A stretch of 64,000 nt of DNA from Nitrospirota bacterium (GCA_963710375.1 CAVPZX010000003.1:192001-256000), one strand, 5' to 3'; counted from the first letter of the stretch, positions 17,338 to 39,603 are shown. The notes: generated from the letters alone by a model not told the origin. A program made the numbers and translations.

Positions 17338-18087
17338 TCAGATACCTGTCTTAATCTGTGCTTTGATGAATTCCCTGTTTAGTTTCGCAATGAACTGTAC
17401 TTTAATCCCTTTAGGACATGCCGCCTGACATTCGTAGTGGTTGCTGCAATTGCCGAAACCTTCCTTAAGCATTGCATCGGTCATCATGCAGACACGCCTT
17501 GCCGCCTCGGCACTTCCCTGAGGCAGGTTCGCAAGATGCGCCACTTTTGCTGCGGTAAAGAGCATTGCGGAACCGTTCGGACAGGCGGCTACGCATGCCC
17601 CGCATCCTATGCACTCCGCGGCATCCATCGCTTTATCGGCAGCGGACTTAGGGATAGGTATCGCATTTGCATCCGGAACACCCCCGGTATGGACCGATAC
17701 GTAACCGCCTGACTGCACGATCAGGTCAAGAGCGCTGCGGTCGACAATCAGATCTTTTATCACCGGGAAGGCCTTTGCGCGCCACGGTTCTATATAGATG
17801 GTGTCTCCATCCTTGAAGTGCCTCATGTGAAGCTGGCATATTGTGGTCTTCTCCTGAGGTCCATGCGGAACACCATTGACTACCTGCGAGCACATGCCGC
17901 ATATCCCTTCGCGGCAGTCGTGGTCAAAGGCTATCGGCTCTTTGCCGGTCTTGATCAGTCCCTGGTTAACGACGTCGAGCATCTCAAGGAAGGACATGTC
18001 GGGGCTTACGTCCTTTGCCCTGTATTCCTCAAGCTTCCCCGGTGAATCCGGGCCTTTCTGTCTCCATACGTATAGTGTCAAATCCAT
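17338..18087 (-). CDS. sdhB: Succinate dehydrogenase/fumarate reductase Fe-S subunit
   Basis: [34 protein letters not shown]. Confidence 0.95.
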
Positions 18088-20000
18088 TATTTGTAACTCC
18101 TCACGGCAAGTTGTACGTTTTCGAATATGAGAGGCTCCTTATGCAGCTCCGATTCTTTGCCAAGGCCTTTGAACTCCCAGGCAGCGACATAACTGAAATT
18201 CACGTCGTCGCGCATTGCCTCGCCTTCCGGCGACTGGTATTCTGTCCGGAAATGGCCGCCACAGGATTCATTGCGGTGAAGGGCATCCAGGGCCAGGAGT
18301 TCGCCGAACTCAAGGAAATCAGCCACGCGGCCGGCTTTTTCGAGCTCCTGGTTAAGGTCGGCTTCGTTTCCCGTGATACGGACGTTTTCCCAGAATTCTG
18401 CGCGGAGTTCAGGAATCATTTTGAGCGCCTTTTCCAGGCTTTCGCGGCTGCGCCCCATTCCTGCATTCTCCCACATGATACTGCCGAGTTCGCGGTGGAA
18501 CTCGTTGACAGTCCTCTTCCCGTTTATGGATAGAAGCCTTTTAATGAGCGTTTTGCTCTCTTCAATCGACTTCATGAACTCGGGATTCCCGGTATTCACT
18601 TTGCCCGGCTTTGTCCTGGCGAGATAGTTTGCTATCGTGTATGGTATTACGAAATACCCATCAGCGAGTCCCTGCATAAGAGCGCTTGCGCCAAGCCTGT
18701 TGGCGCCATGGTCCGAAAAGTTGGCCTCGCCCAGCACAAAGAGTCCAGGGATATTGCTTTCCAGATTATAGTCGACCCACAGGCCGCCCATAGCATAATG
18801 AGGCGCCGGATAGATGCGCATCGGCTGCTTATAGGCGTTTTCTCCGGTTATCTTTTCGTACATCTCAAATAGGTTCCCATAGCGCTCGCGTATCTTGTCT
18901 TCGCCGATGCGCCCGGCTGCGTCGGCAAAATCGAGATAAACGCCGCGACCGCTTGCTCCTACGCCGCGGCCTTCATCACAGACCTCCTTTGCTGCACGTG
19001 ATGAAATATCGCGCGGCGCAAGGTTGCCGAAGCTCGGGTACTTGCGCTCCAGGTAGTAGTCTCTCTCGTTTTCGGGTATCTCATGCGGAGCCCGTTTGTC
19101 TCCCTTGATCTTTGACACCCAAACTCTGCCGTCATTCCTGAGTGACTCGGACATCAGGGTTAGTTTTGACTGGTGGTCGCCGCTCACCGGGATGCAGGTC
19201 GGATGTATCTGTGTGAAACATGGGTTCGCAAAAAAGGCCCCTTTCTTGTAAGCCCGGTATGTTGCAGTCACATTGCTTCCCATGGCATTGGTCGAAAGAT
19301 AAAAGACATTAGTATAGCCGCCTGTGCAGAGACAGACAGCATCGGCTGCATAGGCTTTAATATCTCCTGTCACAAGGTCGCGCACAGTGATCCCTTTTGC
19401 CTCGCCGTCAACAATCACGAGGTCCAGCATTTCTGTGCGGGGATGGAGGGCCACCGTCCCAGCCTTTACCTGACGGGAAAGGGCCGAATATGCGCCTAAC
19501 AGCAATTGTTGGCCTGTCTGACCCCGCGCATAAAACGTCCGCGAGACCTGGGCCCCCCCAAAGGAACGGTTGTCCAGGTATCCGGCATAGTCACGCGCAA
19601 AAGGGACCCCCTGGGCAACACACTGGTCGATGATGTTGTTGCTCACCATCGCCAACCTGTATACATTCGCTTCACGGGACCTGAAATCCCCTCCCTTGAT
19701 CGTGTCATGGAAGAGCCTGAAGATACTGTCGCCGTCATTGGGATAATTTTTGGCAGCGTTTATGCCCCCCTGGGCCGCAATACTGTGAGCACGGCGGGCG
19801 CTATCCTGGTAACAGAACGCTTCTACGTTATAGCCGAGCTCCCCAAGCGACGCAGCAGCGGACGCGCCGGCAAGACCGGTGCCCACGACGATGATTCGGA
19901 ATTTCCGCTTATTTGCAGGATTGACCAGCTTCATTTCCTGGCGGTGCCTGTTCCATTTTTCAGCAAGAGGGCCGGATGGACATTTTCCATCAAGGATCAT
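18087..20000 (-). CDS. sdhA: Succinate dehydrogenase/fumarate reductase flavoprotein
   Basis: [43 protein letters not shown]. Confidence 0.95.
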
Positions 20001-20034
20001 AATTATCTCTCCAAATTAAAAGCCATATTTAACA

Positions 20035-20706
20035 TTACTTCACCAGTCCTGCGAGAATAACCACGGGAATTGCCGCGAAGCCGATAAAGATGATTATCGC
20101 GACAAGCGTTCCCACCTTCCTGATTGCCGGGAAACTCTTTTCGCCATTCAGTCCTATTGTTTGAAACAGACTCTGGATGCTGTGTGACAGATGAAGGCCC
20201 AGTGCGCACATTGCGCTTATATACACGAGGGAGATAAAGAAATTCTGGAAGCTGAGCACCGCCATAGTGAATACATCAGGGCGGCCCAATGCATCCAGAT
20301 GGCTTCTCGATGCAATATCGGGGTTAGTCACCTGAAAGGTGAAATGCAGCAGGTGATATATAACGAATGCCCCTATGAAGAGGCCTGTCCAGATCATGTT
20401 TCTTCCGGCAAAGGTTGTCTGGAGGTTCCCATTCACGGCATAGCCCTGCGGTTTTGCGGCCCGGTTTTCGAGGTAAAGTTGTATTCCGTAAAGCACATGC
20501 ACTGAAAACAGGGTGAACATTGTCAGACGAAAGGCCCAGACGAGGGAAGTGATTCGGTGAAGCGCCTTTGCGTAAGCATTAATCCCATCAGGACCATGAT
20601 ATATTGTCGTATTCCCTAAGAGATGCATCGCCACAAAGGCGATCATCCCAAAGCCTGTAACCGACATTATTAATTTTCGTCCAACACTACTTTTCAGCAA
20701 GTTCAT
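20035..20706 (-). CDS. sdhC: Succinate dehydrogenase cytochrome b558 subunit (single 5-TM, diheme type)
   Basis: SSVGRKLIMSVTG, five hydrophobic segments, conserved His residues; likely start MNLL at 20706. Confidence 0.9.
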   Translation of the reverse strand: MNLLKSSVGRKLIMSVTGFGMIAFVAMHLLGNTTIYHGPDGINAYAKALHRITSLVWAFRLTMFTLFSVHVLYGIQLYLENRAAKPQGYAVNGNLQTTFAGRNMIWTGLFIGAFVIYHLLHFTFQVTNPDIASRSHLDALGRPDVFTMAVLSFQNFFISLVYISAMCALGLHLSHSIQSLFQTIGLNGEKSFPAIRKVGTLVAIIIFIGFAAIPVVILAGLVK

Positions 20707-20772
20707 ATATAGTCTTTCTCCCTCCCTCTCACTCCCTCCCATTACAGGAGGTGAGTGAGAGAGGGGTTTTAA

Positions 20773-22692
20773 TTAAAGAGAAATATTCTCGTCGATTATT
20801 TTAGCATATCCGATACATTTTAGCGCATCGCTTATCTCACCCAGGATCTCAGGATCGTCGATTGTCGAGGGTATTTTATATTTCTCACCATCGGCAATAT
20901 TCCGCATTATGCCCCGCAGTATTTTGCCCGAACGCGTCTTTGGCAGTCTTTTGACAACTGCTGTTTCCTTATAGCAGGCGATGGGGCCGATCTCGGACCT
21001 TATGAGTTTTGATAATTCTTTCACTATCTCTTCAGGCGCCTTTGTCACCCCTGCCTTGAGTACCACAAAACCGACCGGCAGCTGCCCTTTAAGATTGTCA
21101 TTGGCTCCTATTACTGCGCATTCGGCAACATCAGGATGGGTTGCGATGAGCCCTTCCATCTCGCCTGTCGAGAGCCTGTGCCCTGCAACATTAATAACGT
21201 CATCGACACGACCCATTACGAAGACGTAGCCGTCTTCGTCCCTATATCCTCCGTCAGCCGTAAAATAATATCCAGGGTACATATTACAATATGCCTCAAG
21301 ATATCTGTCATCCGCATTCCAGAGGGTAGGTGAGTTTCCCGGGGGGAGGGGAAGTTTTGCCGTGATGATCCCAGTCTGATTCGGCCCAACCTGTTTACCA
21401 TCGGTGTCGAGGATCGTTATATTATACCCCGGAACAGGCTTTGTGGAAGAGCCCGGTTTAATCGGCAACTGTTCGATCCCCATGCAGTTTGCCGTAATCG
21501 GCCAACCTGTCTCAGTCTGCCACCAGTGATCTATCACGTGTTTGTTAAGGAGGTCGTGGGCCCAGTGGTAGGTGTCGGGATCAAGCCGCTCACCTGCGAG
21601 AAAGAGGTATTGGAATTTCGACAGGTCATACTTCTTTATATATTCACCGTTCGGGTCATCCCTCTTTATGGCCCTGAAAGCGGTAGGAGCAGTGAACAGT
21701 GTCTTGACGCCATGCTGGGAGATGACCCTCCAGAAGGCGCCGGGATTCGGGGTGCCCACAGGCTTGCCTTCATATAATATCGATGTGCATCCGGTAAACA
21801 GCGGAGCATATACGATATATGAATGGCCGACTACCCACCCTACATCAGAGGCTGCCCAGTATACTTCGCCCGGATGGGTATCATATATATTCTCGACGCT
21901 CCATCTCAGTGCAACAGCATGGCCACCGTTGTCCCGGACAATACCCTTTGGGACGCCGGTAGTGCCGGAGGTGTAGAGTATATACAGAGGATCTGTCGCC
22001 TTTACCGGCACGCAGTCCGCAGGCTTGGCCTTTGATACCAGCTCTTCCCAGTCAACATCGCGACCCGCCATAGAAGCTGCAACAAATTGCCTCTGGAAGA
22101 TTATGCACTTTTCAGGTTTATGTTTGGCTAATTCAACGGCCTTGTCGAGCATAGGCTTGTACTCGAGTATCTTGGCCCCTTCCTTTGAACCGGATGCAGA
22201 GATTACCACCTTGGGTTTTGCATCATCAATGCGTATCGCAAGCTCATGCGGAGCGAACCCTCCGAACACGACTGAATGGATGGCTCCGAGTCTGGCGCAG
22301 GCGAGCATGGCGATTGCCGCCTGTGGAATCATCGGCATATAAATAACGACTGTATCACCCTTGCTGACGCCGAGCGACTTAAGCCCGCCTGCAAATACCG
22401 CGACTTTGTCGAGCAGTTCGGCATAGGTGAATTTCTGGACGGTGTCGGTAACAGGGCTATCATAAATGAGGGCGAGCTGGTTTGCCCTTCCGCCCTTCAC
22501 ATGCCTGTCAAGCGCATTGTAGCATGTGTTGAGCTCTCCGCCGACGAACCAGCGGTAAAAAGGTTTTTTTGAATCGTCGAGGACCTTGTCCCACTTTTTA
22601 TACCAGTCGATAGCTTCTGCCGCCTTTCCCCAGAAGGCCTCGGGTTCATTAATACTCTTTTTAAATACCTCGTCGTACTTTCCCATGGTCAA
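20773..22692 (-). CDS. prpE: Propionyl-CoA synthetase
   Basis: YTSGTTGVPKG, DHWWQTETG, PKTRSGK; LFLAGE has Ala as in PrpE rather than the Val of Acs. Confidence 0.85.
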   Translation of the reverse strand: MTMGKYDEVFKKSINEPEAFWGKAAEAIDWYKKWDKVLDDSKKPFYRWFVGGELNTCYNALDRHVKGGRANQLALIYDSPVTDTVQKFTYAELLDKVAVFAGGLKSLGVSKGDTVVIYMPMIPQAAIAMLACARLGAIHSVVFGGFAPHELAIRIDDAKPKVVISASGSKEGAKILEYKPMLDKAVELAKHKPEKCIIFQRQFVAASMAGRDVDWEELVSKAKPADCVPVKATDPLYILYTSGTTGVPKGIVRDNGGHAVALRWSVENIYDTHPGEVYWAASDVGWVVGHSYIVYAPLFTGCTSILYEGKPVGTPNPGAFWRVISQHGVKTLFTAPTAFRAIKRDDPNGEYIKKYDLSKFQYLFLAGERLDPDTYHWAHDLLNKHVIDHWWQTETGWPITANCMGIEQLPIKPGSSTKPVPGYNITILDTDGKQVGPNQTGIITAKLPLPPGNSPTLWNADDRYLEAYCNMYPGYYFTADGGYRDEDGYVFVMGRVDDVINVAGHRLSTGEMEGLIATHPDVAECAVIGANDNLKGQLPVGFVVLKAGVTKAPEEIVKELSKLIRSEIGPIACYKETAVVKRLPKTRSGKILRGIMRNIADGEKYKIPSTIDDPEILGEISDALKCIGYAKIIDENISL

Positions 22693-22752: not shown

Positions 22753-25467
22753 CTATTCACCTTTAACAAGCCCCCTGAGCACGAATGGAAGAATTCCTCC
22801 GTGCCTGAAATAGTCTGCTTCAATAGCCGTGTCTATGCGGCAGAGGAGTTTCACTTCCTGCCTCGCGCCATCCCTGCTTCTAACAGCAAGGGTGACGTAT
22901 TGCTGCGGCCTTATCCGGTCCAATCCCACAATATCGAACTCCTCGTCTCCGCGGATGTTTAGAGACTGGACAGAATCGCCCCCATCGAACTGAAGCGGCA
23001 GCACACCCATGCCTACAAGATTTGAGCGGTGGATTCGTTCAAAGCTCTTCGCTATCACTGCCCTGACACCAAGAAGCTGAGTGCCTTTGGCAGCCCAGTC
23101 CCTTGACGACCCGGTGCCATATTCTTCGCCTCCGAACACTACAGAAGGAACGCCCCGGGAAATGTAATTCATGGCTGCCTCATAGATCGACATCTGTTCC
23201 CCTGAGGGCTGCAGCAGCGTGAAGCCCCCTTCTGCAGATGTGCCGTCGTCTTTTGGAGGCAACATGAGATTCCTGATGCGCACGTTGGCAAAGGTGCCCC
23301 GAATCATCACCTTATGGTTTCCCCTGCGTGTGCCGTAACTCTGGAAATCAGTCTCGGCAACGCCGTTATCCATAAGATAGATTCCTGCCGGCGAGGTTTT
23401 CTTGATGGAACCGGCAGGACTTATATGGTCGGTAGTGACGGAGTCGCCGAAAATGCCGAGTGCTCTGGCTCCTGTGATATCGCTCACGCTGTCCGGCTGC
23501 ATACCGAAGCCCTGGAAGAAAGGAGGCTCCGCAATGTATGTCGATTTGGGCCAGTCATAGATATTCCCTGATACTGAGGACACGCTGTTCCAAAGAACAT
23601 TATCTTTGGTCAAGTCCGAATAAAGTCGTCTGAAGGTTTCGGGGTCAGTGGCATACTTCATGACAGCTGCCACTTCATCGGCGGAAGGCCATATGTCCCT
23701 GAGATAGATTTCCTCTCCGTCATTGCCTGTGCCCAGCGGTTCTTTTTCAAGGTTTTTAATCACGGTACCGGCTATGGCAAATGCCACGACGAGGGGAGGG
23801 CTCATGAGAAAATTGGCGCGCAGGTTTGCATGGATACGCGCCTCAAAGTTGCGGTTGCCTGAAAGCACTGCAGCGCAGACGAGGTTGTTCCGGACAATGG
23901 TCTCTTCCACAGCTTCATCAAGAGGACCTGCATTGCCGATGCATGTGGTGCAACCGTACGCAGCGAGATAAAACCCGAGCTTTTCGAGATAAGGCATCAG
24001 TCCGGCTTTATCAAGGTACTCGGCAACCACGCGCGAACCCGGCGCAAGGGATGTCTTTATGTGCTTCTTTACCGTAAGGCCTTTTTCCACAGCCTTCTTC
24101 GCAAGCAGGCCCGCGGCAAGGAGCACGCCCGGATTTGACGTGTTCGTGCATGAAGTGATTGCGGCGATAATAACGTCGCCTGAACCTATGTTGACCTGTC
24201 CTTTTGTCGTGAAGCGTCGTTGAAGGTCTTCTGACTTTATGGCAAAGCCGTTATCAGCCGAAGGCTTCATTAACAAGCAGGAGAAATTCTCTTTCAGAGA
24301 TTTAAGCTCTATGCGGTCCTGGGGACGCTTTGGTCCTGCAACGGAGGGTTTTACACCTGAAATATCCATCTCTATGACCCTGGAGTAATCCAGATCACCA
24401 GCCTTTGGTATGCCGAACATTTCCTGGTTTTTAAAATATTCCCGGAACGCTGAAACTTGATCGGCAGGATGGCCGCTGCTGCGGAAGAAATCCATGGTGA
24501 CGTCGTCTACAGGGAAGAAACCCATCGTAGCGCCGTATTCAGGCGCCATATTGGCAACCGTAGCCCTGTCAGGCAGGGTAAGGGAAGATGCGCCTTCGCC
24601 AAAGAACTCGACAAACTTGCCGACCACTTTTTCCCTGCGGAGCATTTCGGTGATGGTCAGGACGAGGTCTGTAGCGGTCACGCCTTCCCTGAGTTTGCCT
24701 TTCAGTTGCACACCCACGACATCCGGCGTGAGGAAATAAACCGGCTGGCCCAGCATACCTGCCTCTGCCTCTATTCCACCCACTCCCCATCCCACAACGC
24801 CGATACCGTTTATCATTGTGGTATGGCTGTCGGTGCCTACCAGGGTATCAGGATAATACACTCCTTTTTTGCTATGCACGCCCCTGACAAGGTATTCCAG
24901 GTTTACCTGGTGCACAATGCCGATGCCGGGAGGCACGACTTTAAAAGTCTCAAAGGCGTTCATGCCCCATTTCAGGAACTGGTAACGCTCTCTGTTGCGC
25001 TTAAACTCCATTTCCATGTTTTTCCGGAGAGCGCCGGGCTCGCCGTAGCAGTCGATCTGCACCGAATGGTCCACAACCAGATCAACAGGGACCAGCGGCT
25101 CGATGATTCGAGCATCCTTCCCCATCCTGGCAGCTGCACCGCGCATTGCCGCGAGATCGCACAGAAGAGGTACTCCTGTGAAGTCCTGAAGCAAGATGCG
25201 TGCTACTACGAAAGGTATCTCGCCGGTGCGGGGCGCAACAGGTTTCCAGTTGGCAAGCTGCGCCACATGCTCTTCGGTAATCTTCTTGCCATCGCAGTTG
25301 CGCAGCACCGATTCCAGCACTATGCGGATGGATATCGGCAGACGGGAAATTTTGCCGATCCCGGACTTTTCGAGCGCAGGGAGAGAATATAGCTTCCCTT
25401 TCCTGCCGCTGCCGGCGTCGAATTCCCGGATTATATTATTAAATGACGAACATATCGACGAATTCAT
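22753..25467 (-). CDS. acnA: Aconitate hydratase A family (citrate / 2-methylisocitrate)
   Basis: [52 protein letters not shown]. Confidence 0.92.
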
Positions 25468-25498
25468 TCACCGGGGCCCCTTCCAATTTAGTCTGATC

Positions 25499-25588
25499 AA
25501 GGTTAAGGCAAAGGTTGAGGTTAAGAAACAAACCTGCTTTCGCCTTATACCTTTTGTATTTTTTATTTTATATTTGCTTAACCTTAAC
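25499..25588. repeat. Second inverted hexamer array (RAGGTT / AACCTT)
   Basis: aaggttaaggcaaaggttgaggttaag ... cttaaccttaac, between prpC and acnA. Confidence 0.7.
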
Positions 25589-25591
25589 ATG

Positions 25592-26767
25592 TTATTTCCT
25601 TGCGCTCATCGGCACGTACGCTCGGTCTTCCGGGCCGAGGTAGTTGGCGGAAGGCCTGATGAGCTTGTTGTCCATCCGCTGTTCAATAACGTGAGCTCCC
25701 CAGCCGGTTGTACGTGAAATAACGAAGATTGGGGTGAACAGCGACGTAGGCACGCCCAGCATATGATAAGTAACAGAGGAATACCAATCAAGGTTCGCAA
25801 ACATGTTCTTCTCTCTCTTCATAACTTTTTCGATACGGTCGGCGATGTTGTGAAGATTCACATTGTCGCCGTCCTTACAGAGTTTTTTTGCTATTGCCTT
25901 GATCGTCTCATTTCTCGGATCGCTCACGGTATACACCGGGTGCCCGAAGCCGATGATGATTTCCTTCCTGGCCACCCTGGCCACGATGTCGGCCTCAGCT
26001 TCGTCAGGTGTGCTGTAACGCCTCTGGATCTCATGGGCTGCCTCGTTGGCGCCGCCGTGTTTAGGCCCCCTGAGTGCCCCGATCGCCCCTGTGATGGCGG
26101 AGTAAACATCTGCGAGTGTGCTTGTGATCACGCGGGCGGCAAAAGTGGATGCGGTGAATTCCTGTTCAGCATATAATATCAGGGACTGGTCCAAGGACCG
26201 TTTATGCGATTCCGATGGTTTCTTGCCGTGAAGAAGATGCAGGAAATGACCGGCCACGGTGTCGTCGTCTGTTTCTGCCTCTATCCTGTTTCCGTTCTGG
26301 GTGTAATGCCACCAATAAAGGAGCATCGAGCCGAAAGATGCAACCAGGCGGTCTATGATGCCTGCCGCTCCCTGCCCGGTTTGAACATCTTTCTCAGGCA
26401 GGACTGTACCGAGGTAGGAACACGCTGTACGGAGCACGTCCATTGGATGGGTCGAAGCTGGAATAAGTTCCAGTACTTCCTTCACCTTGGCTGGAACACC
26501 GCGAAGAGATATCAATTTTTTCTTATAGTCCTTCAGTTCAGACTCGGTAGGCAATACGCCGTGGATGAGGAGATGCGCCACTTCTTCAAAGGTGGACTGC
26601 ATTGCGAGCTCCACAATTTCATAACCGCGATAGTGCAGGTCATTTCCTGTACGTCCCAGGGTGCATACCGATGAGTTCCCAGCTACCACACCTGACAGGG
26701 CAACGGACTTTTTTACTGTTGGGGCTGCAGTTTCTGTCACAGCCGCACCTGATGCATTATTGCTCAT
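25592..26767 (-). CDS. prpC: 2-methylcitrate synthase / citrate synthase II
   Basis: [58 protein letters not shown]. Confidence 0.88.
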
Positions 26768-28754: not shown

Positions 28755-28796
28755 TGTATGTGCCTCCTCCTTCTTCTTCATTAACAATTGATGCTA

Positions 28797-29015
28797 TCAA
28801 AAGCGCGTAAACGCCCTCAGCTGGATTAATTTCCGCATGGCCATCATCTCCTGCCGCCCACTCTGTCCCCACTGGCTGAACTCGAAACTCCGAGGTTTCT
28901 TGAGAGGTGCTTGCTGCTCTTGCGCAGCCATAGCTTCCTCCTGTTGCAGATAGAGACTCACGGCAGCTAAGGCGGCAGCCATTTTCTTTCTTTGATCTGC
29001 CATCACATCACCCAT
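28797..29015 (-). CDS. Small carboxylase accessory (delta/epsilon-like) subunit
   Basis: AAALAAV-YL ... WGQSGR pattern; lies between carboxyltransferase genes. Confidence 0.6.
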   Translation of the reverse strand: MGDVMADQRKKMAAALAAVSLYLQQEEAMAAQEQQAPLKKPRSFEFSQWGQSGRQEMMAMRKLIQLRAFTRF

Positions 29016-29101: not shown

Positions 29102-29386
29102 TTAGTAGCTGTAAATGGCGTATTCCGTTTCCTCGCCAAGCAGTCTATCTATCTCCGCCTGAACTTCGATGCGTTGCGGATTGTTTACCCAACTGTTCCA
29201 GTCTTCTAAGGAACTCCAGGTACCAATAACCATGCACTCATCTTTATTGTCTATTCTATGTAAGGTTTCTCCTGAGAGATAGCCGGGTTGACTGAGAGCG
29301 AGAGCCCGCAACTTATTAAGGAGGAGTGTCAGTTCAACGACATTATTATCCCGCACCTTTCGTTTAATAAAAATCTTCACTGTCAT
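29102..29386 (-). CDS. ABM (antibiotic biosynthesis monooxygenase) domain protein
   Basis: QPGYLSGETL...VIGTWSSLEDWNSW. Confidence 0.75.
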   Translation of the reverse strand: MTVKIFIKRKVRDNNVVELTLLLNKLRALALSQPGYLSGETLHRIDNKDECMVIGTWSSLEDWNSWVNNPQRIEVQAEIDRLLGEETEYAIYSY

Positions 29387-29424: not shown

Positions 29425-30975
29425 TTATAGTGGTATATTACCGTGCTTTTTCATCGGATTTGTATCGCGCTTATTCTGTAGCAGCCCCAGTGACCTGATT
29501 ATTCTTGCCCTGGTTTTCGATGGTTCGATAATATCATCGATGTAACCGCGTTGGGCTGCTACATAGGGATTGGCAACAGCATCCTGGTACTCCTTCTCCT
29601 TTTCTGCCAAAAATGCGCTTGGATCTGGGGCTTTTTGGGCATCCTTGCCATACAAAACTCCAACAGCACCTTTTGCCCCCATCACTGCAATTTCAGCGGT
29701 GGGCCAGGCATAGTTAATATCGCCGCGTAAATGTTTGGAGGACATGACGCAATAGGCTCCGCCATACGCTTTCCTTGTAATGACAGTTACCTTGGGAATG
29801 GTCGCCTCGGCAAAGGCATAGAGAATTTTAGCACCGTTACGTATTACTCCGCCAAACTCCTGAGCGGTTCCCGGCAAGAAGCCAGGAACGTCAACAAAGG
29901 TAACAACCGGAATATTGAAACAATCGCAGAACCTGACAAAACGAGCGCCCTTTATTGAGGAGTCTATGTCGAGGACACCGGAGAGATAGGCCGGCTGGTT
30001 GGCAACTATACCGACACTCATCCCGTTATACCTGGCAAACCCGACTAAGAGATTCGGTGCGAAGTTTTCCTTAACCTCAAAAAAATCATTGTTATCTATT
30101 GTTTGAAGGATAACATCTTTCATATCATAGGCAGCATTGGGATTTTCAGGAATAATCTGGTTGAGTGCGACACTCTCCCGATCTGGCGGATCGGTGCAGG
30201 GCACAAGGGGAGGATTTTCCATATTATTCTGGGGCAGAAACGAAAGCAGTCGGCGAATATAGGCGATGGCATCAGCACCTGACCCAGCAGGATAATCAAC
30301 AACTCCGCTGCGACTGGCATGCATCGCTGCCCCGCCTAAAGTTTCTTCGCTGACATCTTCATGGGTCACTGATTTGACGACTTTCGGGCCGGTGAGAAAC
30401 ATATACGATTTATTCTGGACCATGATGACAAAATCGGTGAGGGCCGGCGAATATACCGCTCCACCGGCACAGGGACCAAAAATCGCCGAGATCTGGGGCA
30501 CTACCCCCGAGGCCATGACATTGCGTTGGAATATCTCCGAATAGCCGGCGAGACTCTCAATTCCTTCCTGAATACGCGCCCCGCCGGAATCATTCAATCC
30601 GACCACCGGAGCGCCGTTTTTCATGGCAAGATCCATTATCTTACAGATTTTTTCCGCAAAGGTTTCTGACAGGGAGCCACCGAGTACGGTAAAATCCTGG
30701 GCAAAAACATAGACAATACGGCCATCGACAGTGCCATGCCCGGTTATTACACCGTCTCCCAGGAAGACCTGCTTGTCCATGCCGAAATCCCTGCATCTAT
30801 GGGTCTTGAACATATCGAATTCCTCGAAAGAGCCCTTGTCTAAAAGCAGATCAATACGCTCCCTGGCGGTCAAAAGGTATTTTTTATGATGTTTATCGAT
30901 TCTTTTTTGACCACCGCCCAAAAGGGCTTCTTCCCTGAGTTTGCTCAGATGTTCCAGTTGGTCATCGATCTTCAT
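29425..30975 (-). CDS. Methylmalonyl/propionyl-CoA carboxyltransferase (12S / PccB / MmdA family)
   Basis: [44 protein letters not shown]. Confidence 0.93.
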
Positions 30976-31370: not shown

Positions 31371-32360
31371 TTATTTGCCGTTTTGGGTATACAAAAAGGC
31401 AAGAAGGCTATCGGCGGCTGCAGTCGGCGAAGTCTTTTTTTCTTCCACGTTTCTTCTTAACATTGGTAATGCCTCGCGGACATGGGGGCTGGTGTAGAAC
31501 CAGTGTCGTAATCCTTCATCAATAAGAAAGGCCATCCAGTCGAGGGCTTGGGTTTTTCTTTTTTCCGCCATTTCGCCGCTGACAGTCAATTTGTCGCGAT
31601 GGTCCAGGATAGTCTCCCAGATTTTGTCAATTCCTTTGCCTTCCGCGGCGCTGCAGGTAAGAACTGGGGGACTCCAATTCGGGCTGTGGGCCATGAGCAT
31701 GTGCAAAGCCGTCTGATACTCCCTCTGAGCTATCTCAGCCCGCAACAGATTGTCGCCGTCGGCTTTATTGATGACAATGGCGTCAGCCACTTCAAGCACG
31801 CCCTTTTTTATTACTTGAAGTTCGTCTCCCGCTCCGGCAATCATCAGCACCAGAAAAAAATCGACCATGGAGGCGACGGTGGTCTCCGATTGACCGACGC
31901 CAACCGTTTCGATTATCACAACATCATAGCCAGCGGCTTCGCAGACGAGCATGGTTTCTCGGGTTTTTCTGCCGACACCGCCGAGAGTTCCACTTGTTGG
32001 GGACGGGCGAATAAAGGCGTTTGGGTCAACCGCCAGTCGTTCCATGCGAGTTTTGTCACCCAGAATACTGCCGCCGCTGCGGCTGCTGCTCGGGTCGATG
32101 GCAAGGACGGCAACCCGGTGTCCAAGATCTGTGAGCATCGTCCCAAACCTTTCGATAAATGTACTCTTTCCCGCACCGGGAACGCCGGTTATGCCAACGC
32201 GAATGCCGCGGCCAGTATAAGGAAGGAGTCTGTCAACTATGGTTTGGGCAAGTTCTTGATGGGTCGGAAGAGTGCTTTCGATAAGGGTGATGGTTCTGGC
32301 GAGTGTCAGACGATCACGATTAAGAACTCCTGTCACATAGTGCTGGAGATCATTTAACAT
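31371..32360 (-). CDS. meaB: Methylmalonyl-CoA mutase-associated GTPase
   Basis: GVPGAGKST, IDPSS, GGSILGDKTRM, ETVGVGQSE, NKAD. Confidence 0.95.
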   Translation of the reverse strand: MLNDLQHYVTGVLNRDRLTLARTITLIESTLPTHQELAQTIVDRLLPYTGRGIRVGITGVPGAGKSTFIERFGTMLTDLGHRVAVLAIDPSSSRSGGSILGDKTRMERLAVDPNAFIRPSPTSGTLGGVGRKTRETMLVCEAAGYDVVIIETVGVGQSETTVASMVDFFLVLMIAGAGDELQVIKKGVLEVADAIVINKADGDNLLRAEIAQREYQTALHMLMAHSPNWSPPVLTCSAAEGKGIDKIWETILDHRDKLTVSGEMAEKRKTQALDWMAFLIDEGLRHWFYTSPHVREALPMLRRNVEEKKTSPTAAADSLLAFLYTQNGK

Positions 32361-32572: not shown

Positions 32573-34714
32573 TCATTGAAGATATTTTTCTTCTAGTAAG
32601 GCAAGAGTTTTATCGGCAGATTCGGGGATCGGAGTACCTGGCCCAAAAATAGCCTTTACTCCGGCTTTATAGAGGAAATCATAATCCCCGGGAGGGATAA
32701 CACCCCCGGCAACAACGAGAATTTCGCCACCGCCGATTTTTTTCAGTTCTTTAATCAGGGCAGGAATGAGCGTCTTGTGCCCGGCCGCAAGACTTGAGGC
32801 GCCAACGACATGGACGTCGTTTTCAATAGCCATTTTCGCCGCCTCCTCAGGGGTCTGGAACATCGGGCTGATGTCAACATCGAAGCCGAGGTCGGCATAG
32901 GAGCAGGCAACAACCTTGAAGCCGCGATCATGACCGTCCTGACCCATCTTGGTAACCAGGAGTCGTGGGCGTCGGCCCTGTTTTTCAAGGAACACATTTG
33001 TTCGTTGTTTTATCGCCGTGATAGCATTGTTGTCACCTGTGTATTCCGACGAGTAGGCGCCGGAGATACAATGGGTCGTGGCAAGGAAGCGGCCAAACAC
33101 CGATTCCATGGCAGCAGAAATTTCACCCACAGTGGCTCTTGCCCGAACCGCAGGTAGTGCTGCCTCCAACAAGTTGCCGCCGTTTTTCGCGGCCTTGGTC
33201 AGATCTGCCAGGGCTCTTTCGACTGCCACCTTGTCGCGGCTGGCCTTGATTTCTTTGATGCGGGCAATCTGTTCATCGCGAACTGTAGCCGGTACTTCCC
33301 GGACTTCGAAATCAATTTTCTCGTTGGCAAGCTTGTATTTGTTGACACCGACTATCACATCAAGGCCTTGATCGATTCGAGCCTGTTTTCTTGTCGCCGA
33401 TTCCTCGATACGCATTTTTGGCATACCGCTTTCGATGGCCTTGGCCATTCCACCTAGTTCTTCGATTTCATCGATTATTTTTTGAGATTCTTTGATGATG
33501 CTGTTGGTCAGTGATTCGAGATAGTATGAACCGCCCAAGGGATCAATGACATGACAGATCTGCGATTCTTCCTGGATGATGATCTGGGTGTTGCGGGCAA
33601 TACGGGCGGAGAAATCAGTTGGCAGACCGATAGCTTCATCAAAGGAATTGGTATGCAGGGACTGGGTGCCGCCAAGGGCAGCGGTCATGGCTTCGAGAGT
33701 GGTACGAATGATGTTGTTGTGAGGGTCCTGCTCGGTGAGACTCCACCCCGACGTCTGGCAGTGGGTACGGAGCATGGAGGATTTGGCATTTTTTGGGTTA
33801 AACTGGCTCATTAACCGATACCAGAGGAATCTGGCTGCTCGCAGCATGGCAATATCCATGAAGAAATTCATGCCGATGCCGAAAAAGAAAGAAAGCCTTG
33901 GGGCAAAGGTGTCAACATCCATACCGCTCTTCAATGCCGCTTTCACATATTCGACACCATCAGCTAAGGTAAAGGCTGTCTGCAGAACGCTATTGGCGCC
34001 TGCTTCCATCATATGGTAGCCGCTGATGCTGATGGTATTGTATTTGGGCATCTCCTTGGAACAATAGGCCATGATATCGGAGATAATACGCATTGATGGG
34101 GTGGGAGGGTAGATGTAGGTGTTTCGGGTAAGATACTCTTTGAGGATGTCGTTCTGTATAGTGCCTTCCAGTTTGTCGTGGGCAACACCCTGTTCTTCGG
34201 CGGCCACAATGTACCCGGCGAGTATCGGAATAACCGCACCATTCATGGTCATCGATACCGACATCTGGTCAAGAGGAATGCCGTTGAAAAGAATTTTCAT
34301 ATCTTCAACGGAATCTATGGCAACACCCGCCTTGCCGATATCGCCGGCAACCCGTGGATGGTCGGAATCATAACCCCTGTGGGTAGCCAAATCGAAGGCG
34401 ACCGACAGACCTTTTTGCCCGGCGGCCAGAGCCTTATGGTAAAAGGCATTCGATTCTTTGGCGGTTGAGAAACCGGCATACTGACGAATGGTCCACGGTC
34501 GCCCGGTATACATGGTGGCCATGGGGCCTCGGACATACGGAGCCATCCCGGGGAGGGTGTTAGCTGATTCCATGCCATCCAGATCTTCGGCGGTATAAAG
34601 AGGTTTGACTTTAATACCTTCCGGGGTCATCCAGGAAAGTGTCTCTACGGATTTGCCCTTCATCTGCTTTTCAGCAATTTCTGTCCATTTTGGTAGTTGT
34701 GGATGTTGTGCCAT
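32573..34714 (-). CDS. scpA: Methylmalonyl-CoA mutase (AdoCbl-dependent, fused form)
   Basis: [39 protein letters not shown]. Confidence 0.96.
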
Positions 34715-34774: not shown

Positions 34775-35176
34775 TCAACGCTCACAGAGTTCAACCAGGA
34801 CACCTCCGGTGGCTTTGGGGTGCAGGAAGGCAATCTTGGCGCCACCCGCCCCAATTCGCGGTTGCTGGTCGATGAGTTGAATACCTTTTTCCTTAAGTTC
34901 TTTTAAGGCCTCTTCGATATTTGCTACTCGAAAAGCGATATGCTGAAACCCAGTGCCTTTCTTTTCGATGAATTTTGCCACCGGCCCATCAGGTGAGGTT
35001 GACTCAAGAAGTTCCACTTCACTGTCACCGACTGGAAAAAACGCTGTGGTCACTTTTTGGGTTTCTACCGTTTCAGAGCCTTCTAACCTCAGTCCGAGAA
35101 CGTCGGACCAAAAAATTTTTCCGTCATCAATGCTGTTGACGGCTATTCCCAGATGGTCGATCTTGAGTATTTCCAT
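34775..35176 (-). CDS. mce: Methylmalonyl-CoA epimerase
   Basis: IDHLGIAV, VELLE, HIAFRV, AFLHPK..GGVLVEL. Confidence 0.95.
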   Translation of the reverse strand: MEILKIDHLGIAVNSIDDGKIFWSDVLGLRLEGSETVETQKVTTAFFPVGDSEVELLESTSPDGPVAKFIEKKGTGFQHIAFRVANIEEALKELKEKGIQLIDQQPRIGAGGAKIAFLHPKATGGVLVELCER

Positions 35177-35187
35177 TGTATGCCTCC

Positions 35188-35310
35188 ACGGTCTCGTAAA
35201 AAGTCCATATGCTGCGTTGCTCTTCGCCCTTAGTCACTGCGGCGTACCCACAAGTACGTCTCATTCCTGCGGTCTCGTGCTCCTTGCCTATGAACTTTTT
35301 ACGAGACCGT
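35188..35310. mobile_element. MITE/REP-like palindromic element D
   Basis: Perfect 17-bp inverted repeat acggtctcgtaaaaagt / actttttacgagaccgt enclosing a self-complementary interior. Confidence 0.7.
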
Positions 35311-35324
35311 TATATTTCCTAATA

Positions 35325-36194
35325 TCAAAAAACGCCAGCACAGAAATCGCCGAACCTGCCGAGATTATCACATACATGAATTCCCGCTTCCTTCATGACC
35401 GCAATCTTTGACTGGGCAGTACCGCTCTTGCCGCTCACTATCGCCCCCGCGTGTCCCATGCGTCTGCCCGGGGGAGCGCTTAATCCCGCAACAAACCCGA
35501 CTACGGGCTTACTGACTTTTTCGGTGATATAGGCAGCAGCCTCTTCCTCTGCAGTGCCGCCGATTTCACCCACAAGTACGATCCCCTTTGTCTCCGGATC
35601 TTCTTCAAAGGCCTTGAGGCAATCGATAAAGTTTGTTCCGTTTACCGGGTCCCCTCCGATGCCGAGGCAGGTTGTCTGGCCGATTCCTTTCGTAGTCAAT
35701 TGATGCACAACCTCATAGGTCAAGGTGCCTGAGCGCGACACAACACCGATGGGCCCGCCGGGCTTGTGGATGAAGCCGGGCATGATACCGATCTTGCACT
35801 GACCTGGCGTTATGATCCCGGGACAGTTCGGCCCTATAAGTCTGACTTGTTTCCCATTCAGATAATTCTTGATCCGCATCATGTCGAGCACCGGAATGCC
35901 TTCGGTGATGGCGACAATAATATCGACATCACCGTCGATCGCCTCCATGATGGCCTTTGCCGCAAAGGCCGGAGGCACAAAAATCATGCTGCAGTTCGCA
36001 CCGGTTTCACGCACAGCCTCCTTGACAGAATTAAATACCGGCACATCGTCCATGTTCTGTCCGCCTTTCCCGGGGGTCACGCCGGCCACGACCCGCGTAC
36101 CGTATTCAATACACTGCCGTGTATGGAACTGGCCTTCTCTGCCGGTAATCCCCTGGACAAGCAGTCTTGTTTCCTTATCGACAAATATTGCCAT
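35325..36194 (-). CDS. sucD: Succinyl-CoA synthetase alpha subunit
   Basis: [34 protein letters not shown]. Confidence 0.96.
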
Positions 36195-36227
36195 GATTTT
36201 CTATCCCTCTTTCCAAAAAAATATCAT

Positions 36228-37391
36228 TCAATTCCTGGCGATCTCTGCAATTTTTCCGGCTGCATCGTTCAGGTCCTCTGCTGTAATAAGATTCAGACCT
36301 GAGACCGCAAGAATTTCCCTGCCCTTTTCCACATTGGTACCCTGCAGCCGGATCACAACCGGTACCTTTATTCCCGTTTTCCTGGCTGCCTGGACAACCC
36401 CTTCGGCCAGGACATCACACCGGAGAATCCCGCCGAAAATATTGATCAGAACCGCCTTGACATTGCTATCGCTTAAAATGATGCGGAAACCGTTTTCAAC
36501 CATTTCCGCATTGGCCCCACCGCCCACGTCAAGGAAATTCGCAGGCGCCGCGCCGGCGCTCTTGATGAGATCCATGGTTGCCATGGCGAGTCCCGCGCCA
36601 TTAACCATATTGCCGACATTGCCATTTAGGTTGATGTAATTAAGGTTGTATTTCGAGGCCTCCACTTCCAGGGGGTCCTCTTCGTCAATGTCCCTGAACT
36701 TCAGAATATCCTTTTGCCGGAACAGGGCGTTATCATCGATCTCCACTTTTGCATCCAAAGCAACAAATGTCTCCTGAGCAGTAATCACCAGCGGATTGAT
36801 CTCGAGCAGTGAACAGTCAGCTTCGATAAAAAGTCTGTACAGGTTTTCAACCAGCGTGGAAAACTTTTCGGCAAGCGAATCGGGCAGGTTGAGACCGGCT
36901 CCGATTTCTCTACAATGACCAGGCTCGATTCCAGTGAGAGGATTAATCAACACCTTAATTATCTTTTCAGGGGACTTCGCGGCAACCTCTTCGATATCCA
37001 TTCCACCTGCCCGGCTTGCAATGATCATGATCTTTGCCGTGGACCGGTCCGGGATAATCGAAAAATAAAGCTCCTGAGCAATATCAAGCCCTTGCTCCAC
37101 CAGGACTTTTCGGACCTTCCTTCCCTGCGGTCCTGTCTGGGGAGTCACCAGTGGCCTGCCCAATATGGCAGCTGCCGCGCTTTGCACATCCCCAAGATTC
37201 CGGGCAAGTTTAACGCCGCCTCCCTTGCCTCGGCCACCCGCATGAATTTGTGCCTTGACTACAACGGGAAAACCGCCAAGCCTTCCAGCCATAGCACAGG
37301 CATCATCAGGGCTTGCTGCAACATACCCCTCAGGCACAGGAATATAATGATTCCGAAATAATTCCTTGGCTTGATATTCATGTATCTTCAT
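36228..37391 (-). CDS. sucC: Succinyl-CoA synthetase beta subunit
   Basis: MKIHEYQAK, KAQIHAGGRGKGGG, NGAGLAMATMD, NFLDVGG, NIFGGI. Confidence 0.96.
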   Translation of the reverse strand: MKIHEYQAKELFRNHYIPVPEGYVAASPDDACAMAGRLGGFPVVVKAQIHAGGRGKGGGVKLARNLGDVQSAAAAILGRPLVTPQTGPQGRKVRKVLVEQGLDIAQELYFSIIPDRSTAKIMIIASRAGGMDIEEVAAKSPEKIIKVLINPLTGIEPGHCREIGAGLNLPDSLAEKFSTLVENLYRLFIEADCSLLEINPLVITAQETFVALDAKVEIDDNALFRQKDILKFRDIDEEDPLEVEASKYNLNYINLNGNVGNMVNGAGLAMATMDLIKSAGAAPANFLDVGGGANAEMVENGFRIILSDSNVKAVLINIFGGILRCDVLAEGVVQAARKTGIKVPVVIRLQGTNVEKGREILAVSGLNLITAEDLNDAAGKIAEIARN

Positions 37392-37433
37392 TAACCCGCC
37401 TTCTTATCCAAAAATTCCGTTGACCTGGATACG

Positions 37434-37734
37434 AGTGGATTTATACAAGTCTCATGCCAGTTTTGCCGTGAGTTAGTGTTTCCTTAATTTTTCAAAGCTG
37501 GAGCATGAGCGCAAACGGGTTTAGCCATACCAGCCCATAGCGATATTCATGTCGTAAAATGCATTAAATTGCAGTATACGCAAATATATGCACGCATTAA
37601 ATTGCATGATTGGCTTTTACTTGTTTGCATATTAACAAAAGATTTATAATTCAGTATAGCACACAATATCATCGCTTATAAAATATAAGGTACATTTTTT
37701 GCACACCTTTATAGAGCCAGACTGTTTGAAAGGG
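37434..37734 (-). promoter_or_regulatory. Sigma54-type promoter region, duplicated copy B
   Basis: Minus strand TGGCATGAGACTTGTA (37459-37444); TGCA-N6-TGCA at 37560-37573. Confidence 0.75.
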
Positions 37735-37854
37735 GATAGCGAGCATGAAATCAATGGCAAGAATTCATTAATAACAATCTGCCAATTATAGTTGATGCTG
37801 AGCTTTTTGCCCGATTTAGGGTAATATATATTTATACAAGGACAAACGCCTGCT

Positions 37855-39603
37855 ATGAATACTATCACCAAAGAAGAGATTGAGATCATCCTAGACTCAA
37901 CCCATGACGGAATGATAGCCGTAAACGAGGCTGGTATTGTGACAGTCTTCAATAAGGCTGCGGGGCGGATTACCGGTCTGGACGGGAATCAGATAACCGG
38001 ACGCCCAGCTGTAGAGGTGATTCCGAATACTCGTCTGCATATTATTTTATCTGAAGGAGAGCCTGAGCTAAATCAGCAGCAAATTCTGGGGAAAACAGTA
38101 ATCAGTACAAACAGGGTGCCTGTCAGGAATAAGGATGGGCGGATAATAGGGGCTGTTGCGGTTTTCCGCGACATTACAGAGATTACGACGCTTTCCGAGC
38201 AGGTTTCAGACCTCTGGAAAGTGCGCAGCCTGCTCGAAGCAATCATCGAGGCTACCGAGGATGCCATCTCCGTGGCTGACGACAAAGGCAATACTATCAT
38301 CGTAAATTCCGCCTATACCAGAATCACCGGCTTGTCTAAAGAAGCGGTGCTGCATAAGTCTGTGACGGTCGATATTGCAGATGGTGAAAGCATGCACATG
38401 AAGGTGCTCCAGTCCGGCAAGGCTGTTCATAATGTCCGCATGAAGGTGGGGCCGGCCGGAAAAGAAGTTATCGTGAATGTCGCCCCGATTTTTATCGACG
38501 GGAAAATCAGCGGCAGCGTCGGTGTGTTCCAGGACATCTCCGGGATAATATCACTTACCGAAGAACTATCTCAGGCCAAAAAGTTGCTACGTCACCTGAA
38601 AGCGCGGTATACATGCCTGGACATTATCGGGAATAGTCCTGCAATGATACGGGCCAAGGAACAAGCCCGTATGGCTGCCGAGACCCCTGCCACTGTTATA
38701 TTGCGAGGCGACAGCGGAACCGGGAAAGAGCTTTTCGCTCACGCTATCCATAATGCGAGTTCAAGAAGGAAGGGACAGTTTGTGAGGGTCAACTGTGCTG
38801 CCTTGACCGAGAATCTTCTGGAAAGCGAATTGTTCGGCTATGAGGAAGGCGCTTTTACCGGAGCGCTGAAGGGAGGGAAAAAAGGCCTGTTTGAAGAGGC
38901 CAACGGAGGAACGATATTTCTTGATGAAATTGGAGATATAAGCCTGTCCCTTCAGAGTAAACTCCTGAGGGTCCTTCAGGAAAAGGAGATAGTGCGCGTG
39001 GGCGGGACAAGTCCGTTTACCGTGGATGTGAGAGTCATCACTGCCACCAATGCGAATCTCGAAAAGAAGGTAGCGTCCGGGACCTTCAGGGAGGATCTCT
39101 ACTACCGTCTTAATGTCTTCCCTATCCAGATACCCGCCCTAAGAGAGCACAAGGAAGATATCAAACCCCTGGCGGAGAATATTATTTACAAACTCAATCA
39201 GGGGTTCGGACGCGAAGTACAGAAGATATCGGAAAGCGCTGTTGAGGATCTTTTGGATTATGACTGGCCCGGGAATGTGAGGGAGCTCGAAAATGTCCTT
39301 GGAAGGGCGATGATCACCATGCGTCCCCAGGACACGATAATGGAACGCGAATACCTGCCCCTCCTGCCCGGCGCCAAGATAAGCAGTGCGCCTCTTCCTT
39401 CAACCGGGGTCCAGCCCCTAGAAAAAGTTCTGAGCGAAGCAGAACGGCATGCAGTTGTGCGGGCGCTTAAGGAAACAAATGGCAACAGGACAAAAGCGGC
39501 AAATCTCCTGGGAATCTCTCCGAGGAGCCTGTTTTATAAGATAGAGAAACACGGCTTGAAATCTAATGGCGCCGAGAATATCCCCGCAATTAAGACAGTG
39601 TAA
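37855..39603 (+). CDS. PAS-PAS sigma54-dependent activator (PrpR/RocR/BkdR-like)
   Basis: Two PAS domains, GDSGTGKE, GAFTGA, FLDEIG, WPGNVREL, Fis-type HTH. Confidence 0.92.
   Translation: MNTITKEEIEIILDSTHDGMIAVNEAGIVTVFNKAAGRITGLDGNQITGRPAVEVIPNTRLHIILSEGEPELNQQQILGKTVISTNRVPVRNKDGRIIGAVAVFRDITEITTLSEQVSDLWKVRSLLEAIIEATEDAISVADDKGNTIIVNSAYTRITGLSKEAVLHKSVTVDIADGESMHMKVLQSGKAVHNVRMKVGPAGKEVIVNVAPIFIDGKISGSVGVFQDISGIISLTEELSQAKKLLRHLKARYTCLDIIGNSPAMIRAKEQARMAAETPATVILRGDSGTGKELFAHAIHNASSRRKGQFVRVNCAALTENLLESELFGYEEGAFTGALKGGKKGLFEEANGGTIFLDEIGDISLSLQSKLLRVLQEKEIVRVGGTSPFTVDVRVITATNANLEKKVASGTFREDLYYRLNVFPIQIPALREHKEDIKPLAENIIYKLNQGFGREVQKISESAVEDLLDYDWPGNVRELENVLGRAMITMRPQDTIMEREYLPLLPGAKISSAPLPSTGVQPLEKVLSEAERHAVVRALKETNGNRTKAANLLGISPRSLFYKIEKHGLKSNGAENIPAIKTV

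Follow-up and report, generated by a model that had tools for sequence, protein, structure and literature searches.

The 64,000-nucleotide stretch of DNA analysed here (the window) belongs to G000, the genome of an uncultured Nitrospirota bacterium from soil, and contains a cluster of propionate genes with a divergent transcriptional activator. We consider it probable that this cluster is a former methylcitrate operon in which a methylmalonyl-CoA/transcarboxylase block stands in the place of prpB, prpD is reduced to a scar, propionate is likely oxidized through the block, and prpC persists as a probably disabled relic. Fifteen minus-strand genes, all with intact frames, lie within 17338-37391 in the order given in Table 1, from sucC to sdhB. 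The genes named in the earlier note on this DNA are all where and on which strand it put them, and their frames are intact, though it counted 14 co-directional genes where there are 15. Its description of the cluster as a mosaic also holds, the two components being native prp-operon genes and an acquired block; the prpD 3' scar, a 309-bp promoter duplication and the replacement of His202 of PrpC by Gln (H202Q) are features that it did not contain.

Remains of a methylcitrate operon

The intact form of the operon is found at the same locus, flanked by argJ and tyrS, in two congeners, G008 and G002, where the activator diverges from prpB, prpC, prpD, acnA, (prpE) and sdhCAB. A short contig of G001 holds the end of prpC, prpD and acnA, and similar prp operons also occur in G012, G025, G029 and G037. 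The acnA, ligase, sdh and activator genes of the window share 87-90% nucleotide identity with those of G008, against a background of 88%. The prpD scar corresponds to the C-terminus of G008 PrpD (19 amino acids, 84% identity) and is the only match to a congener PrpD query in the whole genome; its retention is explained by the ribosome site and start codon of acnA that it contains. At the other boundary, DNA matching the donor stops a few bases past the 5S stop codon, directly at the prpC start, with a short stretch that resembles both parents. The place of prpB is taken by the methylmalonyl-CoA/transcarboxylase block.

Profile and tblastn searches of the genome for methylcitrate genes hidden elsewhere in G000 did not find any. 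PF03972 (PrpD) and PF04303 (PrpF) had no match in G000, PF13714 (PrpB) had one sub-threshold match, tblastn with E. coli and congener PrpB found nothing, and AceA was not found in G000. The earlier note's statement that PrpB, PrpD and PrpF are lacking from the cluster thus extends to the genome, beyond the 19-amino acid PrpD scar. The window's aconitase passes the AcnA model (TIGR01341) and fails the AcnD model (TIGR02333); of the components of the methylcitrate cycle, PrpB was not found in G000, nor was either PrpD (scar aside) or the AcnD and PrpF pair.

The two pathways are distributed in a complementary manner within the genus. Across ten genomes, prpD was found in three (G001, G002, G008), the mutase in five (G000, G003, G004, G006, G007), neither in two and both in none; in the family (68 genomes), prpD occurs in nine, the mutase at E<=1e-150 in 14, and both in one. 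The genus genomes are 74-100% complete and, being kin, not independent, which tempers the replacement reading, and no statistic is claimed. The other carriers of the block show different remains: in G003 the prpB ribosome site is joined to a prpD 3' scar, in G007 a prpB stub runs into a stub of prpC, a short prpD scar remains in G004, and none was seen in G006. prpC is lost or fragmented in all four, while acnA and the ligase are kept in all five carriers. acnA was not found in the two genomes without either pathway, one of which (G005) has sdh at the native locus and no activator, acnA or ligase seen there. From these comparisons, insertion and deletion have broken what was once a methylcitrate operon, and we are probably seeing one pathway partway through its recent replacement by another; read across the genus, the swap of modules in place is recent and repeated, and G000 represents an intermediate. 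A base-resolved replacement series of this kind is unusual, running from intact prpBCD (G008, G002) through a crippled prpC (window) and stubs (G007) to a clean deletion (G003).

Three observations touch these operons. A tandem-word hairpin occupies the rest of the prpC-acnA spacer beside the prpD scar. In G002 (L105), acnA is split in several frames despite intact prpBCD and prpE is missing from the operon, through assembly error or decay. In G019 (L089:604-2610), PrpB and PrpC share one open frame of 668 amino acids, an apparent fusion or lost stop.

The state of PrpC

The window PrpC passes its family model (NF009006, 632 bits against a cut-off of 550) and is 84-85% identical to PrpC of congeners. 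At 64% identity to the E. coli protein and 65-66% to those of Burkholderiaceae it is of proteobacterial type; the Betaproteobacteria-like origin proposed in the earlier note stands to that extent, beta- and gammaproteobacterial sources not being separated. Its synonymous divergence (dS) from G008 is 0.76, compared with 0.35-0.47 for neighbouring genes, and this higher silent divergence suggests that prpC may have recombined in from another lineage.

Position 202 is Gln in the window and His in 118 of 118 homologues, in an alignment built from the best 120 of 7999 hits from which a fragment of the window's own protein (P0013) was dropped. A sequencing error was ruled out, as contigs from runs X2, X4, X5 and X8 show no difference at the codon. 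The position corresponds to His200 of E. coli PrpC and H229 of GltA, and we take it to be equivalent to His238 of pig citrate synthase. In E. coli, H229Q reportedly weakens oxaloacetate binding. The window PrpC departs from the conserved set of Si-citrate synthase residues that includes the H229 equivalent. In the accessible parts of the sources, H229 is among the verification residues for Si-citrate synthase (PMC13147460 Table 2), and His238 is among the active-site histidines of the pig enzyme (PMC4524684). The idea of a PrpC subfamily that has Gln and accompanies methylmalonyl-CoA clusters was also considered and rejected: a motif scan of JGI metagenomes gave one stretch (L162), GC-rich and encoding a PrpC 66% identical, with no cluster gene alongside.

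The earlier note proposed instead that PrpC and AcnA are redeployed. In such a functional hybrid they would be kept as a propionate-induced citrate synthase and aconitase, acetyl-CoA would be burnt in the tricarboxylic acid (TCA) cycle, and H202Q would merely weaken oxaloacetate binding. Several observations favour this alternative or weigh against a relic. PrpC keeps the catalytic His237, His276 and Asp327 and has no frameshift. The ratio of nonsynonymous to synonymous change (dN/dS) on the prpC branch is 0.07 (0.05-0.11), similar to its neighbours, and dN/dS detected no relaxed selection, estimates from distant outgroups being saturated. The six changes at highly conserved columns are a high number but not a unique one, other homologues having a mean of 1.2 and a maximum of 7. 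A 371-bp contig of a related strain (X6; depth 4.6, possibly a mosaic) apparently has Q202 with ancestral residues elsewhere, so that the change may not be very recent. One of the other citrate synthases of G000, on contig C2, has its catalytic Asp changed to Asn, a change not shared by the orthologues in six relatives; this leaves only one intact synthase shown in the genome. acnA is kept in every carrier, and no sucCD or sdh was found outside the cluster. In the part of the source available, PrpC enzymes are also reported to have citrate synthase activity and to be able to replace GltA (10.1101/2022.08.25.505149).

Nevertheless, we judge the functional hybrid unlikely. Gln202 stands where every aligned homologue has His, and the citrate synthase on contig C8 has all eight reference residues intact, with carbon monoxide dehydrogenase/acetyl-CoA synthase (CODH/ACS) also present. 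Tyr199 and Leu326, proposed as propionyl-CoA specificity residues, are unchanged, so that an active PrpC would, without PrpD and PrpB, also yield dead-end 2-methylcitrate, a compound called toxic in the available part of PMC11861179. These unchanged residues and the loss of prpC from the four other carriers weigh more in our assessment, and we think it probable that PrpC survives as a disabled relic and has not been put to a new use. The redeployment proposal is thus unsupported in its PrpC part and survives for AcnA, which may add aconitase capacity.

The C2 citrate synthase belongs to an operon (L135:7464-13603; C2 ~579-586 kb) of aconitase, citrate synthase, a succinate-semialdehyde dehydrogenase-like gene and a thiamine diphosphate enzyme, in which the aconitase-synthase-dehydrogenase order is kept in five congeners; it presumably resembles the cyanobacterial 2-oxoglutarate decarboxylase bypass.

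Origin and spread of the acquired block

The block, comprising sucC-sucD-mce-mutase-meaB and 12S-ABM-small-5S, also occurs in G003, G004, G006 and G007. Identity among the five carriers is 94.7-96.8% in the block and 77.8-91.6% in four genes of the hem region; for the window and G004 the values are 96.8% and 78.2%. Against G007, the block genes have dS values of 0.10-0.19, compared with 1.06-1.54 for acnA, ligase and sdh. In a housekeeping tree, G000 lies near G002, G008, G005 and G003 and is distant from G004, G006 and G007. Because block identity among congeners is far above housekeeping identity, recent lateral spread of the block within the genus is the simplest reading.

The source of the block was sought in a quick maximum-likelihood tree of 70 5S sequences, drawn from L002-L060 and L071-L075 at a minimum cover of 80%, together with six further sequences, and leaving out L061-L070 and L076-L081. 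The five copies form one clade (SH-like approximate likelihood ratio support 96) nested among Desulfocapsaceae and Desulfobulbaceae. The tree places the origin of the 5S subunit in Desulfobacterota, in line with the earlier note's prediction for the mutase block, and we take the block to be Desulfobulbales-derived. In the other four carriers the two sub-blocks are convergent, as in several Desulfobulbales loci, with a pair of PccB and biotin-carrier genes alongside, and a PccA-type frame was read in G004. In the window the 12S-5S sub-block is inverted, which places all genes on one strand, and PccAB is absent.

Related genes were encountered in other taxa. All eight genomes of g34, a second genus of the family (L145-L149; G054, G057, G058), have a mutase and a 5S fusion; in the three clusters viewed the mutase is split and the 5S is ~60% identical and outside the Desulfobacterota clade, which we read as an independent acquisition. 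Related 5S fusions (L006, L009, L070) occur in metagenome-assembled genomes (MAGs) labelled Burkholderiales, another Nitrospirae and Hyphomicrobiales, as further transfers or binning errors.

Promoters and the activator

A 309-bp segment preceding sucC (P1) is repeated at 87.7% identity preceding 12S (P2). P1 contains a sigma54-type site at 37444-37460 and TGCA-N6-TGC palindromes near 37559 and 37592; in P2 the corresponding positions are 31012-31028, 31126 and 31159. Both copies retain these sites despite 12% divergence, and their sequences line up with those of the prpB promoters in G008 and G002 and with the sucC promoter of G006, the outer palindrome pair being 33 bp apart. When matrices were built from eight congener promoters only, P1 and P2 ranked first and second of 1024 candidate sites in G000. 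With a GAFTGA-bearing AAA+ activator, rpoN in G000, -24/-12 sites and upstream palindromes, the motifs of a sigma54 system are all present, and the sigma54 control suggested by the earlier note is upheld at the level of motifs; we infer that P1 and P2 are under the control of the divergent PAS-PAS activator. The activator scores below the PrpR cut-off (TIGR02329, 338 of 499), and its N-terminus consists of two PAS domains, not of the E. coli PrpR type. A PAS-type sigma54 regulator is presumably also present in the Pelotomaculum mmc cluster. The paired TGCA-N6-TGCA palindromes 33 bp apart offer a candidate operator for this uncharacterised PAS-PAS activator. A search for the same operator in the initial 3.6 kb of eight Desulfobulbales loci gave nothing, bar one unconvincing match.

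The third-ranking site lies on C2, ~0.75 kb upstream of a transporter gene of the SatP/acetate-uptake family. This third promoter copy (L138:4802-6300; C2 ~199.8-201.3 kb) is separated from the transporter by an unassigned frame, and the transporter is a candidate regulon member for propionate uptake. A scan of 20000-38000 for sigma70 promoters and terminators gave 28 promoter-like sites (19.2+/-4.2 in shuffles) and 15 terminator-like sites (19.0+/-4.2) and was not used.

Gene content

Genes were named by NCBIfam and Pfam profile searches with family cut-offs applied. SucC, SucD, the epimerase, the mutase and MeaB, the core of the methylmalonyl-CoA pathway, all score above their NCBIfam cut-offs with motifs intact. 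The ligase scores best with PrpE families but below their cut-offs (758 against 955; 717 against 827) and passes an acetate-CoA ligase subfamily model; its position is that of prpE in congeners. No Pfam family was assigned to the 68-amino acid small subunit.

The 5S fusion matches Propionibacterium 5S (PDB 1rqb) at E 5.5e-119, has 5ks8 as its best PDB match and falls below the NCBIfam 5S cut-off. Together with the 12S-like protein it provides the transcarboxylase gene set, namely a 12S-like subunit, a pyruvate carboxyltransferase and a biotin carrier without a dedicated biotin carboxylase, and birA is present. The earlier note saw neither a biotin carboxylase nor a Na+-pump beta subunit in the cluster, and genome-wide searches agree: PF03977 is absent from G000, and the single biotin carboxylase is AccC, adjoining accB. 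In G000, a congener PccA query matched nothing beyond AccC and the 5S fusion's biotin-carrier domain, and no PccAB was found. With both of these absences, transcarboxylation is the likely carboxyl source, as the earlier note proposed.

Table 1. Features of the cluster and its divergent activator
Feature	Position	Strand	Remarks
Activator, PAS-PAS-AAA+-HTH sigma54 type	37855..39603	+	GAFTGA at residue 332; native, 87-90% to activators beside congener prp loci
Promoter P1	37431..37738	-	Homologous to prpB promoter of G008/G002; predicted driver of sucC to meaB
sucC, succinyl-CoA synthetase beta	36228..37391	-	Acquired block; only copy found in genome
sucD, succinyl-CoA synthetase alpha	35325..36194	-	Acquired block
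mce, methylmalonyl-CoA epimerase	34775..35176	-	TIGR03081 over cut-off; acquired block
Methylmalonyl-CoA mutase, B12-dependent, single chain	32573..34714	-	NF006944 over cut-off; DxHxxG at 593; acquired block
meaB, GTPase chaperone of mutase	31371..32360	-	NF006958 over cut-off; acquired block
Promoter P2	30999..31305	-	87.7% duplicate of P1, preceding inverted 12S-ABM-small-5S sub-block
Acyl-CoA carboxyltransferase, predicted 12S-like transcarboxylase subunit	29425..30975	-	
ABM-domain protein	29102..29386	-	Position kept in Desulfobulbales loci
68-aa small subunit	28797..29003	-	Position conserved; probably accessory subunit
5S+1.3S-like pyruvate/oxaloacetate carboxyltransferase fused to biotin carrier	26775..28787	-	Likely start ATG at 28754
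prpC, 2-methylcitrate synthase family, full-length	25592..26767	-	Gln202, codon 26162-26164; probable relic
prpD scar	25439..25520	-	Final codons and stop; holds acnA ribosome site and start codon
acnA, aconitase A	22753..25467	-	Native to locus
PrpE-like AMP-forming acyl-CoA ligase	20773..22692	-	Likely start ATG at 22686; native
sdhC, b558 family cytochrome b	20035..20742	-	
sdhA flavoprotein	18087..20000	-	Only copy found in genome
sdhB iron-sulfur subunit	17338..18087	-	

Proposed metabolism

In the pathway that we propose, the activator would turn on P1 and P2, and the PrpE-like ligase would form propionyl-CoA. The 12S-like and 5S-biotin proteins would shift a carboxyl group from oxaloacetate onto propionyl-CoA, giving methylmalonyl-CoA and pyruvate without ATP. 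The epimerase and mutase would convert methylmalonyl-CoA to succinyl-CoA, from which SucCD would recover one ATP, and SdhCAB, FumA and Mdh would regenerate oxaloacetate. Pyruvate would pass to acetyl-CoA by pyruvate:ferredoxin oxidoreductase (PFOR) or pyruvate dehydrogenase (PDH) and then to CODH/ACS or to TCA enzymes (the C8 citrate synthase, AcnA and Icd). The net conversion, propionyl-CoA and oxaloacetate to pyruvate and succinate, would equal that of PrpBCD with AcnA, with thioester energy kept and no 2-methylcitrate formed. Since both pathways share the PrpE input, the Sdh output and the regulator, the middle module would be swappable.

The supporting enzymes are encoded in G000. Searches for accC, citrate synthase, icd, fum and mdh, all genes named in the earlier note, found every one: class I fumarase FumA on C5 and Mdh on C8 complete, with sdhCAB, the enzymes from succinate to oxaloacetate, and two malic enzymes, PFOR, PDH, NADP-Icd and CODH/ACS are also present. 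With these enzymes and the C8 synthase, full oxidation would be possible without PrpC. SucA, AceA/B, AckA, NarI and NrfA were not found in G000, and NarG gave only weak molybdopterin-family matches.

Three features of G000 weigh against propionate oxidation through the block. The genome is without the ATP-dependent PccAB present beside the block in the other four carriers; cobS, cobT, cobU, btuR and PduO-type genes were not found in it, which bears on B12 supply; and dsrA was not found in it, which bears on the electron acceptor. cobS and dsrA are present in eight of nine congeners, ~40 kb apart in G006 and G007, which suggests that one segment bearing cob and dsr is missing from the assembly or lost in G000.

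The last two features lend some support to two other explanations. The block might run mainly reductively, from pyruvate or succinate to propionate as an electron sink, or serve C3/C4 balancing. Fermenting Desulfobulbus converts pyruvate or succinate to propionate in this way, transcarboxylase, mutase and SucCD are reversible, dsrA, narG and nrfA had no convincing match in G000, and an ADP-forming acyl-CoA ligase is encoded elsewhere in the genome. Against this direction, the block took a catabolic prp promoter and is followed by an AMP-forming ligase, the cluster has no CoA transferase, the third promoter copy lies upstream of the acetate-uptake-family transporter, and the absence of dsrA may reflect an assembly gap; we regard mainly reductive use as very unlikely.

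Alternatively, the cluster could be decaying or idle with B12 unsupplied, the insertion having destroyed rather than replaced propionate use. The lack of cobamide completion and adenosyltransferase genes would fit, as would slightly elevated dN/dS on the branches of 5S, 12S and the mutase (0.24-0.35, with wide intervals) and a second acetyl-CoA synthetase copy that is split in G000. All block frames and motifs are intact, however, both promoter copies keep their sites, the same junction was recovered in three studies, and IcmF and corrinoid CODH/ACS proteins in G000 imply corrinoid use, so that of all the explanations considered an idle cluster seems the most improbable. Oxidation of propionate through the block remains our preferred reading.

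Relation to known systems

The methylmalonyl-CoA and methylcitrate routes are both textbook pathways, and what is new here is a variant of known pathways, with no new enzyme chemistry shown. Loci of Desulfobulbales (Desulforhopalus sp. IMCC35007, L021; Desulfopila aestuarii, L022; Desulfoprunum benzoelyticum, L024) likewise contain 12S-ABM-(small)-5S/biotin, a prpE-like ligase and sucCD, with mutase-meaB-mce in L021 and L024 and an activator match in L021 and L022; amino acid identity to the window is 79-89% for 5S and 85-90% for the mutase. Unlike these loci, the window cluster is in Nitrospirota, inside a prp operon, on one strand, with a duplicated promoter and no PccB/biotin-carrier neighbours, and prpC is absent from all 80 loci compared. 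The Propionibacterium transcarboxylase shares the 5S-type domain and the 12S-like partner, whereas in the window 5S and the biotin carrier form one fused protein, an arrangement found in pyruvate carboxylase beta (5ks8). With prpBCDE of E. coli and Salmonella the cluster has PrpC in common, and with the G008 and G002 operon also the locus, promoter, acnA, ligase and sdh; it differs from prp operons in lacking prpB, in having prpD as a scar and H202Q in PrpC, and in its PAS-PAS activator.

Desulfurella acetivorans is described, in the available part of PMC11861179, as using the methylmalonyl-CoA route despite a prp operon, with AMP-forming activation and ATP recovered by SucCD; its authors consider the prp operon possibly left over from ancestors. 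Desulfurella has functional prp enzymes and an ATP-dependent propionyl-CoA carboxylase, whereas the operon in the window has been physically disrupted by an insertion, and a transcarboxylase-type pair is all that was found. The mmc clusters of Pelotomaculum thermopropionicum and Desulfotomaculum likewise gather methylmalonyl-CoA genes in one cluster, in a different phylum, and the accessible part of PMC4148979 describes no methylcitrate remnants in them. In the available part of a recent survey of digesters, Desulfobacterota are the sole group among its own MAGs with complete methylmalonyl-CoA pathways (PMC13248872). No description of such a cluster or replacement in Nitrospirota was found in the literature covered, most subscription papers lying outside it.

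The replacement series bears on why anaerobes carry an unused methylcitrate operon, a question left open in the portion of PMC11861179 available, and allows explanations based on energetics or toxicity to be tested in closely related genomes. Dissulfurispiraceae-like Nitrospirota, with dsrA in eight of nine congeners, become candidate propionate oxidizers in soils and sediments. A broader reading, which we put forward only tentatively, is that a Desulfobulbales B12/biotin cassette has recently swept this soil and sediment genus, repeatedly evicting the methylcitrate cycle and capturing its activator, promoter, ligase and Sdh. The carriers would then be unrecognised anaerobic propionate oxidizers. 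In G000, an intermediate on this reading, selection against toxic 2-methylcitrate would have inactivated synthases through point changes (H202Q in PrpC and possibly Asp-to-Asn in the C2 enzyme) ahead of deletion.

Host, genome and assembly support

G000 comprises 3.19 Mb in nine contigs and is 98.76% complete with 0.75% contamination. Its ribosomal protein S9 shares 92% identity with a sequence labelled Dissulfurispiraceae bacterium and 80% with that of Dissulfurispira thermophila; apart from one match of 87% labelled Alphaproteobacteria, the remaining named matches are Nitrospirota. Identity to S9 of a Nitrospirae MAG is 66%, and to the other four genomes compared 48-52%. By these matches the host is a Nitrospirota bacterium, as the earlier note suspected, and its family is probably Dissulfurispiraceae. 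ArgC was tried as a taxonomic marker and was uninformative.

A chimeric contig, which the earlier note had named as a danger, was ruled out at the acnA-prpC-5S and sucD-sucC-promoter-activator junctions, both crossed by contigs from independent runs. Contigs of run X2 cover 24335-28342 with one difference and 35188-39013 with none, X5 covers 25891-26919, X4 covers 25363-26328, and X8, from a third study, crosses the 5S-prpC junction (26628-26928) with no differences. X2 and X5 belong to the same study as X1, a possible source run, and X4 and X8 to two other studies. Among the records listed, the meaB side of the duplicated promoter P2 is bridged by X6 (31158-31610), and no contig bridges its 12S side (about 31000).

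Signs of mobile DNA and inverted repeats occur in and around the cluster. Just downstream, segments of 12000-16230 match either G000 contig C5 at 98% identity or other places in several congeners at 95-98%; the region includes a methylpurine-DNA glycosylase gene and is read as recently mobile. Inverted-repeat elements of ~120-210 bp lie at 39583-39794, 16640-16830 and 35188-35310, the first two of which have many copies in G000 and congeners and resemble miniature inverted-repeat transposable elements.

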